Sequence record: OZ035813.1
Direction: 5' to 3' (one strand)
Length of the DNA stretch: 38,979 bases
Origin: Kayfunavirus LM33P1
Under the pieces are notes generated by a model. The model saw only the letters and a program-made list of their open reading frames with translations, did not search any database and was not told where the DNA came from. Positions 2,600-29,180 of the stretch are shown in pieces. The position numbers were made by a program, and so were the translations under genes. Numbering within the stretch: position 1 is the first letter of the stretch; each line of letters starts with the position of its first letter.

Positions 2600-2609
2600 C
2601 TGAATGAAT

Positions 2610-2656
2610 AACTATAGGTGAAAGCTGCATTAATAAGCAGCTAGTAACCTATAGTT
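2610..2656 (+). repeat. imperfect inverted repeat after the terminase gene
   Basis: AACTATAGG..AGCTGC ATTAATAA GCAGCT..CCTATAGTT; central 6-bp stem with 8-nt loop and outer 9-bp arms. Confidence 0.5.
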
Positions 2657-2693
2657 ACTACCAGTCTAACATACTGTTTTACAAGGAGTTTGG

Positions 2694-2716
2694 ACTTAAC
2701 TATCACTATAGGGAAG
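2694..2716 (+). promoter_or_regulatory. phage RNAP promoter (phiOR-like, right end)
   Basis: ACTTAACTATCACTATAGGGAAG; predicted +1 at 2711. Confidence 0.75.
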
Positions 2717-2896
2717 ACCCCCGGTTACTTATAGTATTACTATAGTGAATATACATATGCAGACTTTATGCAAGACCTTAGGAGGCAGACTCCGAGTTCT
2801 TACCTAAGGCTTGCACCGATGGAAGGAGGGTGATATTAATCATAATCCCTCCAATACAGATAGTCACCGACCATAGATACAGGAGGTATGTAGCAT

Positions 2897-3055
2897 ATGG
2901 CAAAGACCAAAGCTGTACTTAAAGCTCTGGCGACCAATCGAGCTACATACAGGTTTCTTACTGCTGTTCTACTTGCTGCTGGCGTTACTGCTGGAAGTCA
3001 GTGGGTCGGGTGGGTCGAGACTCTCGTATGTTCTCTGGTCTCTCAGTGTAATTAA
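2897..3055 (+). CDS. small hydrophobic protein (gene 19.5 position)
   Basis: 52-codon ORF with AGGAGG 10 nt upstream, downstream of a phage promoter; below the length cutoff of the supplied ORF track. Confidence 0.45.
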   Translation: MAKTKAVLKALATNRATYRFLTAVLLAAGVTAGSQWVGWVETLVCSLVSQCN

Positions 3056-3164
3056 CGCAATCATGATAACAATCAACGAAAGGAGGTAGGGATGGACGAG
3101 GAGTCTTATGGGTCGTTCTCTGACGAAGATTATCAGACGGAGTGGGAATACGCGCATTGAAGAC

Positions 3165-3205
3165 CTAAGGTCAGTTCATAGCTGACGCTACTCTACTGAC
3201 CTTAG
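3165..3205 (+). repeat. 10-bp perfect inverted repeat (CTAAGGTCAG / CTGACCTTAG) near the right genome end
   Basis: arms separated by 21 nt; non-coding context. Confidence 0.5.
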
Positions 3206-3368
3206 CTACTGTAGTCAAGGACTTTAGGTAACACCTTAAGAGAAGCTCACTTAGGGTCATCCTACTTATTGGTCTATCCTAGTGTCGCCTGACCTACGGT
3301 CCTTGACCTACAGTGGCTGTGGCCTACAGTAGTGACGATGAGTTTTGGACAAAAAGTTTGAGACCACA

Positions 3369-3580
3369 TCTCACACTTCAAGAACCTCAAGTCTCCCCAT
3401 AGGCCCTCTTTCAGTCCAGACCAAAGGCCCTACCCGTTACTGCTCCTTGCAGTCACAGCCAGTCTATCATAAGGTTGGACAGATGGTCAAGACTTAAGGT
3501 CAACGATAGGCTGAGGCTATGGCTTAGGGAAGGACGATAGGTTGGGACTATTGGTCTTCTTTGAGTCTCTATCTGTATAA
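3369..3580 (+). repeat. predicted direct terminal repeat / genome left end (collapsed single copy)
   Basis: begins TCTCACA like the T7 left end and ends GAGTCTCTATCTGTATAACC resembling the end of the T7 terminal repeat; boundaries approximate. Confidence 0.35.
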
Positions 3581-3700
3581 CCATAAGTCACAACCATAGG
3601 TCACAGCCTACCTCTCACAACCATAAGTCATAACCTACAGTCTCACTAACCTACAGTCTCAACCATAAGACACCAACACCTACAGTCATAGACCTACAGT
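3581..3700 (+). repeat. array of short direct repeats (CCATAAGTCA / CCTACAGTC) next to the predicted terminal repeat
   Basis: at least 9 copies of the 8-10 bp motifs within 120 bp; analogous to the CCTAAAG heptamers at the T7 left end. Confidence 0.6.
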
Positions 3701-3790
3701 TAATAGACACAAGGCTATAGACTTAAGGTCTAAGACATGTTAGTCAAAGACTATATCCTCTTACACCATGGGGCCGACGATAGCTTAATC

Positions 3791-3840
3791 AATATTATTT
3801 CAAATTACCTATTGACTATAGGTCCAGACTATGGCCTAAT
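3791..3840 (+). promoter_or_regulatory. candidate host sigma70 early promoter (A1-like) with AT-rich upstream element
   Basis: AT-rich AATATTATTTCAAATTACCT then TTGACT at 3812-3817; -10 weak (CCTAAT at 17-bp spacing or TAATAG). Confidence 0.35.
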
Positions 3841-3951
3841 AGCTTCCGTCAACACGACACGGCAACAACCGGATAGTGAAGACGCCGGTCCGGTCCGGTT
3901 AAGTAGTCAGCCTGTAAGACATACGAACAACAGGCAACCGACAGAAAGTAG

Positions 3952-3981
3952 TTGACAGGCAGTAACGACTTAAAGTAATAT
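3952..3981 (+). promoter_or_regulatory. host sigma70 early promoter (T7 A3-like)
   Basis: TTGACA, 18-bp spacer, TAATAT; downstream GTACCACAT..GAAAC..GCTCTTTAACAATCTGG resembles the T7 A3 leader. Confidence 0.6.
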
Positions 3982-4095
3982 GTACCACATCGAAACAACG
4001 GTGATGACCAACACTGAATGGTCTACCTGAAGTCCTCTGACTGAAGGGAATGCTCTTTAACAATCTGGATAAACTCTTAATGTGCGCCGATAGCG

Positions 4096-4151
4096 ACTAA
4101 CTACAGGGCCTTTGAGTCTACATCTGAAGGCCCTGACTGATAGTCACTAAC
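4096..4151 (+). promoter_or_regulatory. early-region repeated hairpin element (copy 1)
   Basis: contains GGCCCTGACTGATAGTCACTAAC and a 7-bp stem CAGGGCC/GGCCCTG; lies just upstream of the first early ORF. Confidence 0.4.
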
Positions 4152-4158
4152 TTAAAGG

Positions 4159-4413
4159 ATGGACACTATGAAACACTTAAGCACAATCACTAATCGCAAT
4201 GAAGTATTCGTGAACACTAAAGGTTATGCGTGGATTCAGCTTAAAGAGATGACAGGAGCGCGTCACCGTGTGGTAGTGCGCAAGGTATCAAGCAAGCAGT
4301 TCAGCAACTACAGCGTCGATACTGTGCGTATAGACAACGAGACATACCTGATAGACTCGCAGATAACCGTGAGTCCTACAGTGGGCGTCTCAGCTCCTTA
4401 TTTCGCTAACTGA
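4159..4413 (+). CDS. hypothetical early protein, first gene after the host promoters
   Basis: 84-aa ORF about 90 nt downstream of the T7-like leader GCTCTTTAACAATCTGG; no recognisable motif; alternative ATG at 4168. Confidence 0.5.
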   Translation: MDTMKHLSTITNRNEVFVNTKGYAWIQLKEMTGARHRVVVRKVSSKQFSNYSVDTVRIDNETYLIDSQITVSPTVGVSAPYFAN

Positions 4414-4420
4414 GAGTGAT

Positions 4421-4468
4421 TAACTACAGGTCGTTAGACTGATAGCGGCCTGACTGATAGTCACTAAC
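4421..4468 (+). promoter_or_regulatory. early-region repeated hairpin element (copy 2)
   Basis: ACTACAGGTC..GGCCTGACTGATAGTCACTAAC upstream of ocr. Confidence 0.4.
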
Positions 4469-4496
4469 ACATAATTAACTTTGAGAGGATATAACT

Positions 4497-5000
4497 ATGG
4501 AACGTAATGCTAACGCATACTATGAGCTGCTGGCTGCAACCGTTGAGGCATTTATCGAGCGTATTCAGTACGACCACCTGACTCAAGATGACGACTACAG
4601 CGCTGCGCTGCATGAGGTCGTAGACGGTCAGGTTCCACACTATTACCACGAGATTTTTACGGTGATGGCTGCTGATGGTATAGACAACGAGTTCGAAGAC
4701 TCTGGGATGATACCTGAAACCAAGGACGTAACGCGTATCCTACAAGCTCGCATCTATGAGGCACTTTATAACGACGTGTCTAATAGCTTGGATGTAGTCT
4801 GGTTTGAGGATGAAGAGGCAGACGAAGAGGATGAATATTGGGTAGTTGACGCTAAAACAGGCGCAATAATTGTGCAAGCTGTAGCTCTTGAGGTCGCTAC
4901 TGCATGTGCCAAGGTCAACTATGTGATAGGTCGCCACCTTCAGGTGGAAGACATCAATGATAACGTAGTGTTTGACCCTGCTGCTGAGGACTGCGAGTGA
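4497..5000 (+). CDS. ocr: Ocr-like anti-restriction DNA-mimic protein (T7 gp0.3 homolog) with C-terminal extension
   Basis: residues 1-110 align with recalled T7 Ocr ([45 protein letters not shown] versus T7 [45 protein letters not shown]); acidic patch, then about 50 extra residues absent from T7 Ocr. Confidence 0.8.
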   Translation: [167 protein letters not shown]

Positions 5001-5149
5001 TGGTAACTTATGGCCTCTGCCAGCACCACGTCACTAACGCCCGGCTTATGGTCAAGACCGGGCAGTTAGACCACGATTGGGCTATGCGTCTCTTGAAAGT
5101 GGTCTACAGGAGACGCAAGCGTATACACGACAGTTTACACGCTAAGTGA
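5000..5149 (+). CDS. small basic hypothetical protein
   Basis: 49-aa ORF whose ATG overlaps the ocr stop (TGATG); ends just before a repeated hairpin element. Confidence 0.35.
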   Translation: MVTYGLCQHHVTNARLMVKTGQLDHDWAMRLLKVVYRRRKRIHDSLHAK

Positions 5150-5150
5150 C

Positions 5151-5196
5151 AGACTACAGGTCATCAATGCTGGTGGCCTGACTGATAGTCATTAAC
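5151..5196 (+). promoter_or_regulatory. early-region repeated hairpin element (copy 3)
   Basis: GACTACAGGTCA..GGCCTGACTGATAGTCATTAAC upstream of ORF 5213. Confidence 0.4.
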
Positions 5197-5212
5197 AACT
5201 GAGAGGGAAGAT

Positions 5213-5440
5213 ATGAACACAATCACTGGTGCCATAACCAAAGGTTTTCGAGCAATTTTCGGTGAAACGCAAGAAGTATGCACCAATCATAAATTCGTAC
5301 TTTCTTGCGTAGCAGGTGACGAGTTTGACGGGTTCGATAAACTGGTGGTTTGCGACCATTGCGGACAAGAGGCTATCCAACACTCAAACGGTAAATTTGA
5401 ATTAATAGACGATAGCCTTACAGAAGGAGACGGCGAGTAA
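5213..5440 (+). CDS. hypothetical early protein with four-cysteine (zinc-ribbon-like) motif
   Basis: 75 aa; Cys pairs in VCTNHKFVLSC and CDHC; SD GAGAGGGAAG upstream. Confidence 0.5.
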   Translation: MNTITGAITKGFRAIFGETQEVCTNHKFVLSCVAGDEFDGFDKLVVCDHCGQEAIQHSNGKFELIDDSLTEGDGE

Positions 5441-5572
5441 CCTAAATAAACAGGAGAGAACCAAATCATAGCTTGACCATAACACTGACGTGATGGTACT
5501 GAGTGATAGACGAGAGGTCATCGACTGATAGGTGGCCTCAAAGATTACCACTTACATTGATAGGAGTTAACT

Positions 5573-5677
5573 ATGAGCACTGCAATCATCTGGACTATCT
5601 CAGGCTTCGTAGCGTGGGGAATGTTTACTCTAGTCTGCAAACTACCGGTCCTTACTCAACTGTTATGGGGCTTATGA
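5573..5677 (+). CDS. small hydrophobic early peptide
   Basis: 34-aa ORF with SD TAGGAG upstream; TGA overlaps next ATG (ATGA). Confidence 0.3.
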   Translation: MSTAIIWTISGFVAWGMFTLVCKLPVLTQLLWGL

Positions 5678-5877
5678 CTATGAGTATCGCACTATTGATA
5701 GCCATAGGCTATGGACTTATCGCCTACGTGCTGGTGAGAGACATCAACAAAGCGCGTAAAGTCTACAAATTCAAATATGTACGTCTGGGTAGCTGGACTG
5801 TACGTCAACCTAACGGACGATTCATGCGTAACTTAGCGAACGTCTGGGATATAGCAACACTTGGGAGCAAACTGTAA
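5674..5877 (+). CDS. small membrane protein (early)
   Basis: 67 aa with N-terminal TM-like helix SIALLIAIGYGLIAYVLV; translationally coupled to neighbours by ATGA overlaps. Confidence 0.4.
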   Translation: MTMSIALLIAIGYGLIAYVLVRDINKARKVYKFKYVRLGSWTVRQPNGRFMRNLANVWDIATLGSKL

Positions 5878-6203
5878 TGAACAAGTCATACGGGATTAAT
5901 CTGGTACACTCTATGGACGCAGACATGCAAATGTTAAGCCTACTGGCTACCGGGTATCGTCACGGAACGTCAAGTCACTCCGCACGTCAACAGCAGGAGC
6001 GGGACCGGGTACTGCAAGCAAGACTCCGGGCTGAGGGCCATAAGTCCGAACTAATGTGTCTGGTGTATGGTGGACGACCAATCACTGACGATGGTAAACT
6101 TTTAGTCTCAGGCTGGAAGGCGATAGACCAACGGTCAACCATCAAGCACACGACTCATGGTGACTTCAGTCATCTCCACGCTAACCCGCTGATATGCAAG
6201 TAA
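5877..6203 (+). CDS. hypothetical early protein
   Basis: 108-aa ORF at the position where T7 carries the gp0.7 kinase; no kinase motifs seen. Confidence 0.55.
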   Translation: MNKSYGINLVHSMDADMQMLSLLATGYRHGTSSHSARQQQERDRVLQARLRAEGHKSELMCLVYGGRPITDDGKLLVSGWKAIDQRSTIKHTTHGDFSHLHANPLICK

Positions 6204-6208
6204 TTCTG

Positions 6209-6231
6209 ACTTAACTATCACTATAGGACTC
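6209..6231 (+). promoter_or_regulatory. phage RNAP promoter immediately upstream of the RNAP gene
   Basis: ACTTAACTATCACTATAGGACTC; predicted +1 at 6226. Confidence 0.7.
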
Positions 6232-6300
6232 AAGGTCTAAGACTCCAAGTGAAAGACCAAAGAGACTTTAAGTGAAAGACTAATAACAAGGACTTTAAGT

Positions 6301-8982
6301 ATGAGCGTCATCTCTATTGACAAGCACGACTTCTCTGATGTGTCGAACGCCATTGAGCCGTTTAACCTACTGGCTGACCACTACGGGCAAGACATTGCAG
6401 TCAAACAGCTTCAGCTTGAGCACGAGGCATACACTGAAGGCGAGCGACGTTTCATCAAGAACCTTGAGAGACAGACTGAGCGAGGGGAACTGGCAGACAA
6501 TCAGGTCGCCAAGCCTTTGATGCAGACTCTGGTCCCTAAGATTGCGCAAGCCGTCAAGGAGTGGCATGAAGGTCCAGACGGGAAGCTGTCAACCTCTCGT
6601 CCGAGCGTAGCGTTCACCATGTTGAGCACTGAAGAGAAGGCCGTAAAGGTCCGCTCTTTGCGCATCTCCTGCGAGTCTGCTGCGGTTATCATATTGAAGG
6701 TCATACTCTCCAAGCTGGTCAAGCCTGAAGGGATACCGATTACACCGATGGCCTCAGCGATAGGTCGCACACTTGAGGACGAAATCCGCTTCGGTCGCAT
6801 CCGTGACAAGGAGAAAGAGCACTTCAAGAAGGCGATAGCTGATAACCTGAATAAGCGGGCCGGGGCGTCCTACAAGAAAGCCTACATGCAAGCGGTCGAG
6901 GCATCCATGCTGGAGCAAGGCCAACTGGAAGATGCGTGGGGGACTTGGAGTCCGACCGAGGCTGTCCACGTTGGAATCAAGATGCTGGAGATTGTCATCC
7001 AGTCCACACAACTGGTCGAGCTTAAGCGTTACGGTGCTGGCAATGCAGCGGCTGACGTTGAGATGGTCCACCTGTCAGACTTCTGGGTCAAGAAGATGGC
7101 ACAACGAGGATTCAGCCTTGCGGGTATAGCTCCAGTCTACCAGCCTTGCGTCGTTCCACCTAAGCCGTGGACTGGTGTCGTAGGCGGTGGGTACTGGGCC
7201 AAAGGACGCAGACCATTACCACTGATTCGCTTAGGGTCTAAGTCTGCGGTAGCACGCTACGAAGACGTGTATATGCCTGAAGTCTATGACGCTGTGAACA
7301 TCATTCAGAATACACCTTGGAAAGTGAACAAGAAGGTTCTGGAAGTGGTGAACATGGTCGAGAAGCTGAACAACACGCCTATTGATGACATCCCTCAGAT
7401 GGAACCGCTGAAGCCTGAGGACTATGCGGGTGAGACTGAAGAAGAACTCAAGGCATGGAAGAAGGCTGCTGCTGGTATCTATCGCCGCGAGAAGGCCAGA
7501 CAGTCACGAAGATTGTCACTGAGCTTTATCGTCAACCAAGCGAACAAGTTCTCTCAGTTCAAGGCCATCTGGTTCCCGTATAACATGGACTGGCGCGGTC
7601 GCGTCTACGCTGTGCCGATGTTCAACCCTCAGGGTAACGACATGCAAAAGGGTCTTCTGACTCTGGCAGTCGGTAAGCCTATTGGTGCTGATGGTTTCAA
7701 ATGGCTGAAGGTCCACGGTGCAAACTGCGCGGGTGTCGATAAAGTCACCTTCGAGGAGCGTATCAAGTGGGTGGAAGATAACCACGACAACATCATGGCT
7801 GCTGCCAAGGCACCGATGGATAGCATTGAGTGGTGGGGCAAGTTAGACTCTCCGTTCTGCTTCCTAGCGTTCTGCTTCGAGTATGCTGGCGTAATGCACC
7901 ACGGCTTGTCTTACTCCTGCTCGCTGCCGATAGCGTTCGATGGGTCCTGCTCTGGGATTCAGCACTTCAGCGCTATGCTTCGCGACCACATCGGTGGACA
8001 TGCAGTAAACCTGACGCCATCCGGTAAGGTCCAAGACATCTACCGCATCGTGTCTGACCGCATTGAGGAGGAGCTTAAAGTCCTACTGGTTAACGGTACG
8101 GACAACGAGATGGTAACTCACGAGGACAAGAAAACTGGTGAGATTACCGAGCGTCTCAAGCTGGGGACACGAGAGCTTGCCCGTCAGTGGCTGACCTACG
8201 GTATGTCACGAAAGGTCACTAAGCGTTCGGTCATGACTCTGGCCTACGGGTCGAAAGAGTACGGCTTCGCAGACCAAGTTTACGAGGACATCGTGATGCC
8301 AGCGATTGACTCAGGGTCTGGCGCTATGTTCACTGAACCAAGCCAAGCATCTCGCTTCATGGCTAAGATGATTTGGGAAGCTGTGAGTGTGACCGTAGTT
8401 GCTGCGGTTGACGCGATGAAATGGCTTCAGGGTGCTGCCAAGCTGCTTGCTGCTGAAGTGAAGGACAAGAAGACTGGAGAAATCCTGAAGCCTTGTCTTC
8501 CGGTACACTGGGTCACACCTGATGGTTTCCCTGTCTGGCAGGAATACCGCAAGAAGGACACCACTCGTCTGAACCTGATGTTCTTAGGGTCATTCAACCT
8601 TCAGCCTACCGTCAACAAAGGCACGAAGAAAGAGCTGGACAAGCACAAGCAGGAGTCAGGCATTAGCCCGAACTTCGTCCACTCACAAGATGGTAGCCAC
8701 CTCCGCAAGACTGTAGTCCACACGCACCGCAAATATGGCGTGATGTCATTCGCAGTGATTCACGATAGCTTCGGGACCATCCCGGCTGACGCTGAGTATC
8801 TGTTCCGTGGAGTCCGTGAGACGATGGTCGAGACCTACCGCGACAACGATGTGCTGCTTGACTTCTACGAGCAGTTTGAATACCAGCTTCACGAGAGCCA
8901 GAGAGACAAGTTGCCTGAGCTTCCGAAGAAAGGTAAACTGAATATCGAAGACATCTTGTCTTCAGACTTTGCATTCGCTTAA
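6301..8982 (+). CDS. T7-like single-subunit DNA-directed RNA polymerase (gp1)
   Basis: 893 aa; characteristic T7 RNAP sequence throughout (for example PMFNPQGNDMQKGLLTLA, HDSFGT, AFCFEYAGV, C-terminal FAFA). Confidence 0.97.
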   Translation: MSVISIDKHDFSDVSNAIEPFNLLADHYGQDIAVKQLQLEHEAYTEGERRFIKNLERQTERGELADNQVAKPLMQTLVPKIAQAVKEWHEGPDGKLSTSRPSVAFTMLSTEEKAVKVRSLRISCESAAVIILKVILSKLVKPEGIPITPMASAIGRTLEDEIRFGRIRDKEKEHFKKAIADNLNKRAGASYKKAYMQAVEASMLEQGQLEDAWGTWSPTEAVHVGIKMLEIVIQSTQLVELKRYGAGNAAADVEMVHLSDFWVKKMAQRGFSLAGIAPVYQPCVVPPKPWTGVVGGGYWAKGRRPLPLIRLGSKSAVARYEDVYMPEVYDAVNIIQNTPWKVNKKVLEVVNMVEKLNNTPIDDIPQMEPLKPEDYAGETEEELKAWKKAAAGIYRREKARQSRRLSLSFIVNQANKFSQFKAIWFPYNMDWRGRVYAVPMFNPQGNDMQKGLLTLAVGKPIGADGFKWLKVHGANCAGVDKVTFEERIKWVEDNHDNIMAAAKAPMDSIEWWGKLDSPFCFLAFCFEYAGVMHHGLSYSCSLPIAFDGSCSGIQHFSAMLRDHIGGHAVNLTPSGKVQDIYRIVSDRIEEELKVLLVNGTDNEMVTHEDKKTGEITERLKLGTRELARQWLTYGMSRKVTKRSVMTLAYGSKEYGFADQVYEDIVMPAIDSGSGAMFTEPSQASRFMAKMIWEAVSVTVVAAVDAMKWLQGAAKLLAAEVKDKKTGEILKPCLPVHWVTPDGFPVWQEYRKKDTTRLNLMFLGSFNLQPTVNKGTKKELDKHKQESGISPNFVHSQDGSHLRKTVVHTHRKYGVMSFAVIHDSFGTIPADAEYLFRGVRETMVETYRDNDVLLDFYEQFEYQLHESQRDKLPELPKKGKLNIEDILSSDFAFA

Positions 8983-8997
8983 CAACAGGAGAAGTAT

Positions 8998-9228
8998 ATG
9001 TCAATGAAACTTGTAGCACACAACAGGGTATTCAACGATGGGTCGGGACGTTGCCATGTAGAGCTGACTTATAAGGATTTAATCATTCTCCGAGACAGAT
9101 TACAGTCGGGTGTGACTGGGTGGATTCAACCTAACGAGTACAACCTTATAGCTTCGATTGATGAAGTTCTTAACGCGTGGATGGAAGACGAGCGCATTCA
9201 GTATCCGTCATTCCCTCTAATTAGATAA
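8998..9228 (+). CDS. hypothetical protein
   Basis: 76-aa ORF with AGGAGA SD directly after the RNAP gene. Confidence 0.5.
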   Translation: MSMKLVAHNRVFNDGSGRCHVELTYKDLIILRDRLQSGVTGWIQPNEYNLIASIDEVLNAWMEDERIQYPSFPLIR

Positions 9229-10073: not shown

Positions 10074-11161
10074 TGACAACTATCAAAACTAACCCTCACC
10101 GCGCTGTAGATTACTCTGAGTCTGGAATTAAGAAGGCACTGGAAGCAGCCGGGTCTCTGGAAGCTGAAGTGAAGTACGATGGTGTGCGCCTGAACCTCCT
10201 GGTCCTGCGTGAAGGTGAGACCTACTGGCTTAGCCGCGAGTCGAAACCTCTACCAGCCTTGGAGTGGATGAACTCTGAGTTAGGTAATGCGTGGACCCAA
10301 GCTGACTGGCGATGGTTCCTGCGTCAATCCGGCTACGAAGGTGTGGGCATGATGATTGATGGCGAGGTCATGGTCAAAGGTGTAGACTTCAACACCTCCT
10401 CAGGTCTCATCCGAACGAAGTGGCTCAAGCCTAACAACGAGGAGTTCGCTGAATACTATTCGCCGGCGACTGGTGGAAAGAAGCTCCCGTTCTGGGGATC
10501 CCGGTCACGACTTCAGGTTGTGGTCTACGGTGTCATCGACATGACAACCATTGCTGACCCGAAAGCCGAAGGTCCTATCCATAGCGTCACACGCCTGAAG
10601 GCCGAAGCTATCGTCCCTCTCCTCCAGAAATACTTCCCGGAAATCGACTGGGTTCTGTCTGAGTCACACACGGTCTATGACCTTGAGTCTCTCAACTCCC
10701 TGTACGAAGAGAAGCGTCTGGAAGGACACGAGGGTCTGGTAGTCAAGGACCCACTTGGTAAATACAAGCGCGGCAAGAAGTCAGGCATGTGGAAAATGAA
10801 GCCGGAGGACACCATTGATGGGACCGTGTGTGGACTCGTGTGGGGGACTCCTGGTAAGGCTAACGAAGGTAAGATCATCGGCTTTGAGGTTCTACTGGAG
10901 GATGGCATGGTGGTCAACGCCTGCGGTCTGTCTGAAGAACAGAAGGACGGGTTTACGGCTAAGGTCAAGGAGGACACGCTTGCTGCGGTTGGCATCTTTG
11001 CGCCGTACGGCATTGGTGGTAACGAACCTTGCTTCGATAACCCATACGAAGGCTGGCAGTGTGAAGTCCTCTTCATGGAGAGGTTCCCTGATGGCTCCCT
11101 TCGTCACCCCAGCTTCAAGTGCTGGCGTGGAACCGAAGACAACCCAACGGTGAAGTCATGA
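10073..11161 (+). CDS. ATP-dependent DNA ligase (gp1.3)
   Basis: KYDGVR adenylation motif, EGHEGLVVKDP, SLRHPSF; start taken at ATG 10073 overlapping the gp1.2 stop (TAATG) to match the T7 N-terminus MxxIKTNP. Confidence 0.9.
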   Translation: MTTIKTNPHRAVDYSESGIKKALEAAGSLEAEVKYDGVRLNLLVLREGETYWLSRESKPLPALEWMNSELGNAWTQADWRWFLRQSGYEGVGMMIDGEVMVKGVDFNTSSGLIRTKWLKPNNEEFAEYYSPATGGKKLPFWGSRSRLQVVVYGVIDMTTIADPKAEGPIHSVTRLKAEAIVPLLQKYFPEIDWVLSESHTVYDLESLNSLYEEKRLEGHEGLVVKDPLGKYKRGKKSGMWKMKPEDTIDGTVCGLVWGTPGKANEGKIIGFEVLLEDGMVVNACGLSEEQKDGFTAKVKEDTLAAVGIFAPYGIGGNEPCFDNPYEGWQCEVLFMERFPDGSLRHPSFKCWRGTEDNPTVKS

Positions 11162-11337: not shown

Positions 11338-11341
11338 CGTC

Positions 11342-11378
11342 AACCCAGTGGTCTTATGACTGCTGGGTTTCTTTGCGT
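11342..11378 (+). terminator. candidate early terminator (TE-like) after the ligase operon
   Basis: 12-bp stem AACCCAGTGGTC/GACTGCTGGGTT (two G-U pairs), loop TTAT, then TTTCTTT. Confidence 0.45.
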
Positions 11379-13477: not shown

Positions 13478-13968
13478 TGAGCAAGAAGTTTAAACTGTTA
13501 GTAGATGCGCATGGCTGGCCTAGTGGGACTATAGTTACCAAGTGTGAGAATGACCCCGTACCAGATTCAAGAATGACCCTAGTTGAGTGCCAGATTCCAG
13601 GCGCATACAAACATGGGTCTAACGGCTGCAATACTCAGCCTGAGGGTATGTGGGGAGCATGGGTCCTTAATTGGAAACTTGAGGAAATCAAGCCGGAAGA
13701 GAAACTCACTGGTGTCCAAACCACTCAAGTCCTGCCAGCTTCGAGCGTACCGCCTGTGACTTTGAAGCGTGAAGTCCTGACCATCGACAAGATTGGTGTA
13801 GGCCAGACGTTCATCGTCCATGGAAAGCCTGAAGAAGTTTACGTGAAGATTAGCAACTCACACGTCTTCAACCATAAGCATCTCCAGATGCACACCACGG
13901 ACGCACAACGCTTCACCCAGCACCTGAATCTGGTTGTCGTAGAATTGGTGGTGTACAATGGTAAGTAA
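13477..13968 (+). CDS. hypothetical protein inserted between endonuclease I and lysozyme
   Basis: 163-aa ORF with AAGGAG SD, start overlapping the gp3 stop; no counterpart at this position in T7 as I recall it. Confidence 0.6.
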   Translation: MSKKFKLLVDAHGWPSGTIVTKCENDPVPDSRMTLVECQIPGAYKHGSNGCNTQPEGMWGAWVLNWKLEEIKPEEKLTGVQTTQVLPASSVPPVTLKREVLTIDKIGVGQTFIVHGKPEEVYVKISNSHVFNHKHLQMHTTDAQRFTQHLNLVVVELVVYNGK

Positions 13969-14416
13969 GGTACAGTTCAATCCACGGTCCCGGACCGACG
14001 CTATCTTCGTACACTGTTCGGCTACCAAGCCAGAGATGGACATCGGGGTAGAGACCATCCGTATGTGGCACAAGCAGCAAGGCTGGCTGGACGTAGGCTA
14101 CCACTTTATCATCAAGCGCGATGGCACTGTGGAAGAGGGACGCCCGGTCAATGTCGTAGGGTCACACGTTAAGGACTGGAACTCACGGTCTGTAGGCGTC
14201 TGCCTTGTAGGTGGAATTGACGCTAAGGGCAAGTTTGAAGCTAACTTCACTCCGGCCCAGATGAACTCCCTGCGCAACAAGCTGGCTGACCTGAAGGACT
14301 TGTATCCTCAGGCAGAAATCAAAGCACATCATGACGTAGCACCAAAGGCGTGTCCAAGTTTCGACTTGCAACGCTGGCTGTCTACCAATGAACTGGTCAC
14401 TTCCGACCGAGGCTAA
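13958..14416 (+). CDS. lysozyme, N-acetylmuramoyl-L-alanine amidase (gp3.5)
   Basis: 152 aa; TDAIFVHCSATKP, GWLDVGYHFIIKRDGTVEEGR, HDVAPKACPSFDL, ELVTSDRG nearly identical to T7 gp3.5. Confidence 0.9.
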   Translation: MVSKVQFNPRSRTDAIFVHCSATKPEMDIGVETIRMWHKQQGWLDVGYHFIIKRDGTVEEGRPVNVVGSHVKDWNSRSVGVCLVGGIDAKGKFEANFTPAQMNSLRNKLADLKDLYPQAEIKAHHDVAPKACPSFDLQRWLSTNELVTSDRG

Positions 14417-29130: not shown

Positions 29131-29180
29131 AAGGGCCTATAGATTTACCTTAACTATCACTATAGGGACTATAGGCCCTT
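29131..29180 (+). repeat. 12-bp perfect inverted repeat bracketing the phi13-like promoter
   Basis: AAGGGCCTATAG at 29131-29142 and CTATAGGCCCTT at 29169-29180. Confidence 0.6.
29148..29170 (+). promoter_or_regulatory. phage RNAP promoter (phi13-like)
   Basis: CCTTAACTATCACTATAGGGACT; +1 at 29165; bracketed by a 12-bp inverted repeat. Confidence 0.75.

Follow-up and report, generated by a model that had tools for sequence, protein, structure and literature searches.

Whether a phage RNA polymerase (RNAP) of the T7 type can transcribe its own gene, and so amplify its own synthesis during infection, is the question raised by a promoter-like sequence that lies directly upstream of gene 1 in a Kayfunavirus genome. 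The preliminary description of this DNA, made from its letters, proposed that the sequence is a full-strength promoter 75 nt ahead of the RNAP start codon, that the polymerase could transcribe its own gene from it once first made by host transcription, that T7 differs in this respect, and that a variant base shared with two other promoters might define a subclass related to replication origins. The analysis reported here takes up each of these points in the setting of the whole genome and of its relatives.

The window, i.e. the whole stretch of 38,979 nt that was analysed (Kayfunavirus LM33P1, record OZ035813.1), is a circularly permuted Kayfunavirus genome belonging to the K1F-like group of Studiervirinae. 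Homology to phage EcoDS1 places the left genome end at 3369, the terminal repeat being present once, and a megablast search with positions 5800-9000 returned Escherichia phages vB_EcoP-U8 and LM33_P1 at about 99.6-99.9% identity. The polymerase is 63.7% identical to T7 RNAP, carries the specificity-loop motif RLNLMFLGSFNLQ and found a match in 2750 phage records by tblastn. In the LM33_P1 RefSeq record (NC_031937) the RNAP is split into two CDS (2925-4892 and 4920-5606), whereas the window has one intact ORF of 893 aa; the same length and about 99.6% identity, and yet a split gene, suggest a frameshift error or a variant in the public record. The features discussed below are collected in Table 1.

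Table 1. Features of the window that bear on transcription of gene 1; promoter starts were mapped onto the annotations of LM33_P1, EcoDS1 and K1F.
Feature	Position	Strand	Remarks
phiOR start	2711	+	
Two putative host sigma-70 early promoters	3812-3990	+	TTGACT 3812, TTGACA 3952; homologous to EcoDS1 'host RNAP promoter' features
Upstream early gene, 108 aa, function unknown	5877-6203	+	positional counterpart of K1F/EcoDS1 gene 0.38; PHROG 7066
phi1, predicted phage-RNAP promoter	6209-6231 (-17 to +6)	+	reads ACTTAACTATCACTATAGGACTC; predicted start G 6226
5' leader of predicted phi1 transcript, 75 nt, A-rich	6226-6300	+	63% A+T, A = 32/75
Gene 1, single-subunit T7-type RNA polymerase, 893 aa	6301-8982	+	from the ORF list
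phi1.1 start	9547	+	
TE-like early terminator hairpin	~11341-11372	+	AACCCAGTGGTC..GACTGCTGGGTT + TCTTTG; after ligase region
phi1.6 start	11414	+	
phi2.5 start	12288	+	
Gene 3.5 homologue (amidase / T7-lysozyme type)	13958-14416	+	LM33_P1 amidase annotation, record 10582-11040 (window +3376)
phi4 start	14429	+	
phi6.5 start	20558	+	
phi9 start	23397	+	
phi10 start	24382	+	
phi13 start	29165	+	
phi17 start	36441	+	

The sequence before gene 1 belongs to a well-defined promoter set. A search of the window with the 19-nt pattern CTWAACTATCACTATAGGR, allowing up to three mismatches, gave exactly 11 matches (shuffled sequences lead one to expect 0.04), all on the + strand, i.e. the strand of the genes, and each preceding a gene block at the position equivalent to that of a T7 promoter. 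The copy before gene 1, phi1, matches the genome consensus with 0 mismatches, has G at +1 and shares its core from -13 to +2 with the capsid promoter phi10, as expected of a member of the T7-type class. It is intergenic, occupying part of a 97-nt gap (6204-6300) and beginning 6 nt past the TAA stop (6201-6203) of the upstream ORF, whose coding runs up to this TAA in all aligned relatives. The coordinates and letters first reported were all confirmed against the sequence and the ORF list, including the distance of 75 nt from the predicted start to the ATG at 6301, and the labels 'right-end promoter' and 'phi13-like' given to two other sites agree with the mapping on annotated genomes. A sequence-identical site is present in K1F. 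Counted from the left genome end phi1 is the first phage promoter, and no phiOL-type site was found between that end and the upstream gene (3369-6200), even at three mismatches; on the linear genome, gene 1 thus has no phage promoter upstream of it other than phi1.

Between phi1 and gene 1 the path appears clear. A Shine-Dalgarno sequence (AAGGA, 6287-6291) lies 9 nt ahead of the ATG, the leader has no significant fold in comparison with shuffled sequences (z +1.0 for 6226-6320 and -0.2 for 6226-6270), no terminator-like site was detected on the + strand from 2600 to 6300, and the ATCTGTT pause motif is absent from the 75 nt. With no terminator or stable hairpin in the way and a good ribosome-binding site, a transcript starting at 6226 should run into gene 1 and be translated. 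The locus therefore has the structure of an autogenous unit, with a cognate promoter upstream on the same strand and no terminator before the gene and, as nothing separates the two, positive feedback on RNAP synthesis would be the simplest consequence.

The leader has further features of its own. It contains a 21-nt direct repeat (6240-6260, AGACTCCAAGTGAAAGACCAA; 6263-6283, AGACTTTAAGTGAAAGACTAA; 23-nt spacing) as well as two exact copies of GACTTTAAGT, the second of which ends at the ATG; these repeats could be a translational enhancer or a protein-binding site, to name two possibilities. Other Kayfunavirus genomes, those with the diverged 81-nt leader, have similar AGACTYTAAGT units there. 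The leader also opens with one of four + strand copies of GACTCAAGGTC (302, 6229, 9555 and 16488), three of which begin hairpins like those of T7 RNase III sites (GACUCAAGGUCAU...GUGGCCUUUAU), all of them strong (z -2.3 to -2.9). An RNase III site comparable to R1 of T7 and T3 was considered for the leader and rejected, as the copy at 6229 folds no better than shuffled sequences (z -0.2); this copy may be a decayed R1-like site.

The early region is otherwise T7-like, and gene 1 is also part of a unit laid out for the host enzyme. In the scan for sigma-70 sites the putative host promoter at 3952 scored highest (10/12), and at the other end the TE-like hairpin, which matches at 92% the EcoDS1 stretch with an annotated TE, marks the end of the host-transcribed early unit containing gene 1. 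A host-type counterpart of the T7 C promoter was rejected, since the + strand at about 6100-6300 has no sigma-70-like match. No homologue of the gene 0.7 kinase was found in the early region (3369-6203), whose ORFs match only ocr and PHROGs of unknown function; GW1 (L129) and CR8 (L128), unlike the window, have a 0.7-like gene upstream of gene 1. Homologues of both gp2 and gp3.5 are encoded in the window. A CJ-like TATCTGT (3570-3576), situated just inside the left terminal repeat, is followed by short imperfect repeats in an array (ACCATAAGTCA / ACCTACAGTCT; 3570-3700 including the motif) comparable to the repeat arrays near the T7 genome ends, and k-mers related to these repeats are the most repeated words in several relatives. 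In the 3' part of gene 1, TATCTGTT (8797-8804) matches the core of the T7 class II pause/termination signal, a single occurrence of this type being at chance level (1.13 expected).

From this layout we infer a course of events in which host RNAP would start at about 3812 and 3952 and read the early genes and gene 1 as far as TE, so that host-driven transcripts would supply the first polymerase molecules. These would bind phi1 and initiate at G 6226. The mRNA so made would carry gene 1, and the 1.x genes beyond it, behind an A-rich, unstructured leader with a good ribosome-binding site. RNAP synthesis would in this way turn self-amplifying and, after shut-off of the host enzyme by gp2, would no longer depend on it. 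Damping would come later, probably from the gp3.5 lysozyme-type inhibitor, which by analogy with T7 is the likely brake on the loop, and from competition by stronger late promoters. Judged on genomic evidence, phi1 is very probably a functional promoter for the phage's own RNAP that amplifies polymerase synthesis. In the literature that was searched, neither transcript mapping nor transcription in vitro nor mutants were found for any Kayfunavirus.

Comparison with relatives bears directly on this reading. Eighty IMG/VR loci encoding RNAP relatives (numbered here with the prefix L) were collected and the promoters proper to each genome were located; for about 10 loci core-anchored promoter scans were relied on, as automatic de novo motif picking latched onto other repeats. 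An own-type promoter lies 63-81 nt before the RNAP ATG in all 21 evaluable loci whose RNAP shares at least 79% identity with that of the window, and the alignment shows it to be kept across two diverged forms of the leader, 75 and 81 nt long. For K1F, EcoDS1 and the window, part of the conservation reflects nothing more than low divergence, the leader next to the site being conserved to the same degree. The bases from -8 to -12, in addition, covary with the specificity loop of the polymerase, in that three loop variants pair with three promoter types, each of which includes the copy preceding gene 1. The window has N/N/Q at T7 positions 748/756/758 and promoters that read AACTATCAC. The lineage of Cronobacter phage GW1 (L018 and L038, the latter being Kayfunavirus GW1 itself) has the loop RLDLMFLGTFRLQ, with the T3-type residues D/R/Q at the same positions, and promoters of the form AAACCCTCACTATAGG that read AAACCCTCAC; its gene-1 copy, ATTAAACCCTCACTATAGGACTC, shows 0 mismatches to its own consensus. 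Citrobacter phage CR8 (L016, genus Caroctavirus), with K at 748 and the loop RIKLMFMG-VQYR, has promoters of the type AAGGAAGGTACACTATAGG, reading GGAAGGTACAC, and again a copy with 0 mismatches before gene 1. Within one genus, and with an RNAP 89% identical, the GW1 lineage has thus switched all its promoters from AACTATCAC to AAACCCTCAC alongside a T3-type loop, and its comparison with the window is a clean natural case of polymerase-promoter co-evolution. Because the promoter before gene 1 tracks the polymerase through three specificity changes, it would seem to be under selection as a polymerase target; conservation and loop covariation together argue for a selected, functional phi1. The proposal that the polymerase could transcribe its own gene is accordingly well backed at the level of sequence, there being also nothing between phi1 and gene 1 to prevent it.

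The arrangement in T7 and T3 is different. In the T7 record phiOL (405) is followed by phi1.1A (5848) as the next T7 promoter, and gene 1 (start 3171) is adjoined by the minor Escherichia coli C promoter at 3113; phiOL lies 2.8 kb upstream of gene 1, whereas in the window phi1 adjoins it. T3 likewise has a C promoter, together with the RNase III site R1, before gene 1, and its phiOL (366-388) lies 2.6 kb upstream. The statement that T7 gene 1 is transcribed from the host A promoters only is thus right in that no phage promoter adjoins the gene, but it overlooks phiOL upstream of the whole early region, from which the phage polymerase could in principle reach gene 1 in T7 too. More widely, in none of the 57 evaluable loci of T7, T3, K11, KP32 and related types does a promoter lie closer than about 600 nt to gene 1, and these loci have instead a phiOL-type site 2.1-3.4 kb upstream. 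On the other hand, an own-type promoter precedes the RNAP gene by about 90-130 nt in nine of nine Pseudomonas T7-like loci (Pifdecavirus, Ghunavirus and relatives), or in 10 of 10 genomes when the gh-1 record is added, and two further lineages (L122 and L125) have one as well; no promoter of this arrangement was seen in the SP6-like and ICP3/VP4-like loci examined. The locus can therefore not be called unusual, the arrangement being common outside the T7/T3/K11 group. A degenerate stretch, AGATACGATTTACTAAC, 32 nt before the T7-type gene 1 (7-8 mismatches) was rejected as a promoter because it scores at background level. The same stretch, with 12/19 matches to the T7 promoter, is present about 32-38 nt before gene 1 in L027, L033, L035, L036 and L081 and, given the background score, may be a chance likeness and no remnant of a lost phi1. 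One T7-relative contig (L037) carries near its left end 11 tandem copies of a 21-nt unit, AGGAACCACTGAGTATCATTR (201-431).

How strong phi1 might be is another matter. Its leave-one-out PWM score is 27.0 bits, the second-lowest of the 11 sites (range 23.6-37.8), and its initially transcribed GGACTC, conserved across the genus, is pyrimidine-rich in comparison with GGGAGA at phi10; a low rank and a less purine-rich start mean that phi1 could be weak. A strong promoter and a moderate, class II-like one are equally likely, and the term 'full strength' had to be given up, since strength cannot be read from the letters of a site that combines a perfect core with such a score and such a start.

The same low score and pyrimidine-rich start would fit a phi1 that is a relic or is blocked in vivo, with gene 1 transcribed essentially by the host as in T7, but a relic would hardly follow the polymerase through three changes of specificity, persist in all 21 close relatives, all the Pseudomonas T7-like genomes examined, L122 and L125, and keep the core of the capsid promoter, so that a negligible phi1 is barely credible. 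A reading with somewhat more to commend it, and yet an unlikely one, is that phi1 is kept for transcription-driven genome entry and for the start of class II expression (1.1-1.3 and beyond), functionally in place of the missing phiOL, and that transcription of gene 1 from it is an unselected by-product. The window and all Kayfunavirus loci do lack a left-end phiOL-type site, while the T7-, T3-, K11- and KP32-type genomes have theirs 2.1-3.4 kb ahead of gene 1; moreover, host terminators are inefficient at stopping T7-type RNAP, so transcripts from phi1 would continue past TE. Most Pseudomonas loci, however, carry both a left-end phiOL-like site and phi1, which is hence not simply a relocated phiOL; phi1.1 could equally serve genome entry and class II expression, as phi1.1A/B do in T7; and since four separate lineages have phi1 within 63-130 nt of the gene-1 start, gene 1 itself would seem to be its target.

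The -14T variant (cTTAACTATCAC) is indeed common, as first described, to phi1, to the phiOR-equivalent site that follows the terminase gene 19 (2694-2716) and to the phi13-equivalent site that precedes gene 13 (29148-29170); of the remaining eight promoters, seven read TAAACTATCAC and one TAAGCTATCAC. That these three promoters form a functional subclass tied to replication origins or packaging is suggested by the presence of -14T at the same three sites in the window, EcoDS1 and K1F, though these are closely related and their shared trio is weak evidence, and by -14T at phiOR in seven of the seven permuted loci in which it was seen (L005, L006, L007, L009, L013, L017 and the window). Five Kayfunavirus loci (L012, L013, L014, L020 and L021) nevertheless have -14A at phi1, together with a T-to-A change at -2, and one of them, L013, still has -14T at phiOR; phi1 of the GW1 type and of CR8 fits its own consensus with no distinguishing base; and position -14 holds only 0.7 bits, the least inside the conserved block. 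A promoter of the T7 origin-associated type (phiOL, phiOR, phi1.1A/B) would be expected to combine a distinguishing conserved variant with a distinct AT-rich block downstream, and phi1 has neither: an origin-like block after phi1 was looked for, but the A+T fraction at +1..+75 (0.63) is within the range of the other promoters (0.53-0.64). As -14 is unconserved at phi1 across the genus and of low information, and the A+T content downstream ordinary, -14T is treated here as a tolerated variant, and the origin-related subclass is highly improbable.

Accepting phi1 as a polymerase target leads to the history of the arrangement. In a rough neighbour-joining tree of the RNAPs, built without bootstraps, all enterobacterial types in which the promoter is absent fall into one clade, and the basal Pseudomonas group is among the lineages that have it. 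Such a tree would fit ancestral presence followed by loss but does not prove it. It is tentatively possible, though the doubts prevail, that a promoter for the phage's own polymerase before gene 1 is the ancestral majority state in Studiervirinae and that the textbook T7/T3/K11 design, with gene 1 left wholly to the host enzyme and phiOL far upstream, is a derived loss. If so, Kayfunavirus would represent a natural polymerase autogene, in which feedback bounded by the lysozyme-type inhibitor sets the speed of host take-over.

The promoter before gene 1 is already known at the level of annotation and prediction and is not new. In the EcoDS1 record (NC_011042) positions 2244-2266, 70 nt ahead of gene 1, have exactly the same 23 bp and are marked 'promoter phi', a computational annotation without functional comment; this phage, of the same genus, resembles the window in the site between gene 0.38 and gene 1 and in its host promoters, TE, phi1.6 and phi2.5. 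The LM33_P1 record and the GenBank and RefSeq records of K1F contain no promoter features, while the CR8 record lists a 'predicted promoter' (3356-3378) before gene 1. For the field the result is a modest refinement and no discovery. It corrects an over-generalisation from T7, in that the polymerase gene of many relatives would not be purely 'early' and host-transcribed, and it bears on models of infection timing, e.g. T7 simulations in which auto-amplification made predictions erratic, and on K1F-type polymerase/promoter pairs as orthogonal expression parts. In therapeutic engineering of Kayfunavirus phages such as LM33_P1 and K1F, edits in the gap between 0.38 and gene 1 would hit phi1.

Among known systems, gh-1 and the other Pseudomonas T7-like phages have, like the window, an own-type promoter before the RNAP gene, but with another consensus (AAAACCCTCACC..ACAGG), and most of these genomes also have a left-end phiOL-like site, of which the window has none. 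The gh-1 record (NC_004665) names the site 'phi1; putative gh-1 RNAP promoter' (939-961); gene 1 is there the first annotated gene, and phi1 overlaps a putative host terminator and host promoter. A phi1 promoter is also listed for phiIBB-PF7A (PMC3080317), and in phiA318 a phage promoter precedes the kinase and RNAP genes, for which autoregulation was suggested (PMC4099482). For engineered genomes, auto-amplification is expected once T7 gene 1 follows a T7 promoter (PMC3737178, citing Endy et al. 2000). The RNAP gene of LUZ100 has a mapped start site immediately ahead of it, and the positive feedback proposed there begins with host read-through, which gives the first RNAP; this is then amplified from a phage promoter placed as in the window (PMC10134795). 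LUZ100 differs in being distant and temperate-like, in its experimentally mapped start, and in the proposed gating of the loop by a MarR-type repressor and an upstream terminator, whereas neither a repressor nor an integrase nor a terminator lies upstream in the window. An engineered T7 autogene was reportedly described by Dubendorff and Studier in 1991; such an autogene and the relocated gene 1, although artificial, have the cognate promoter directly ahead of the polymerase gene, just as the window does.
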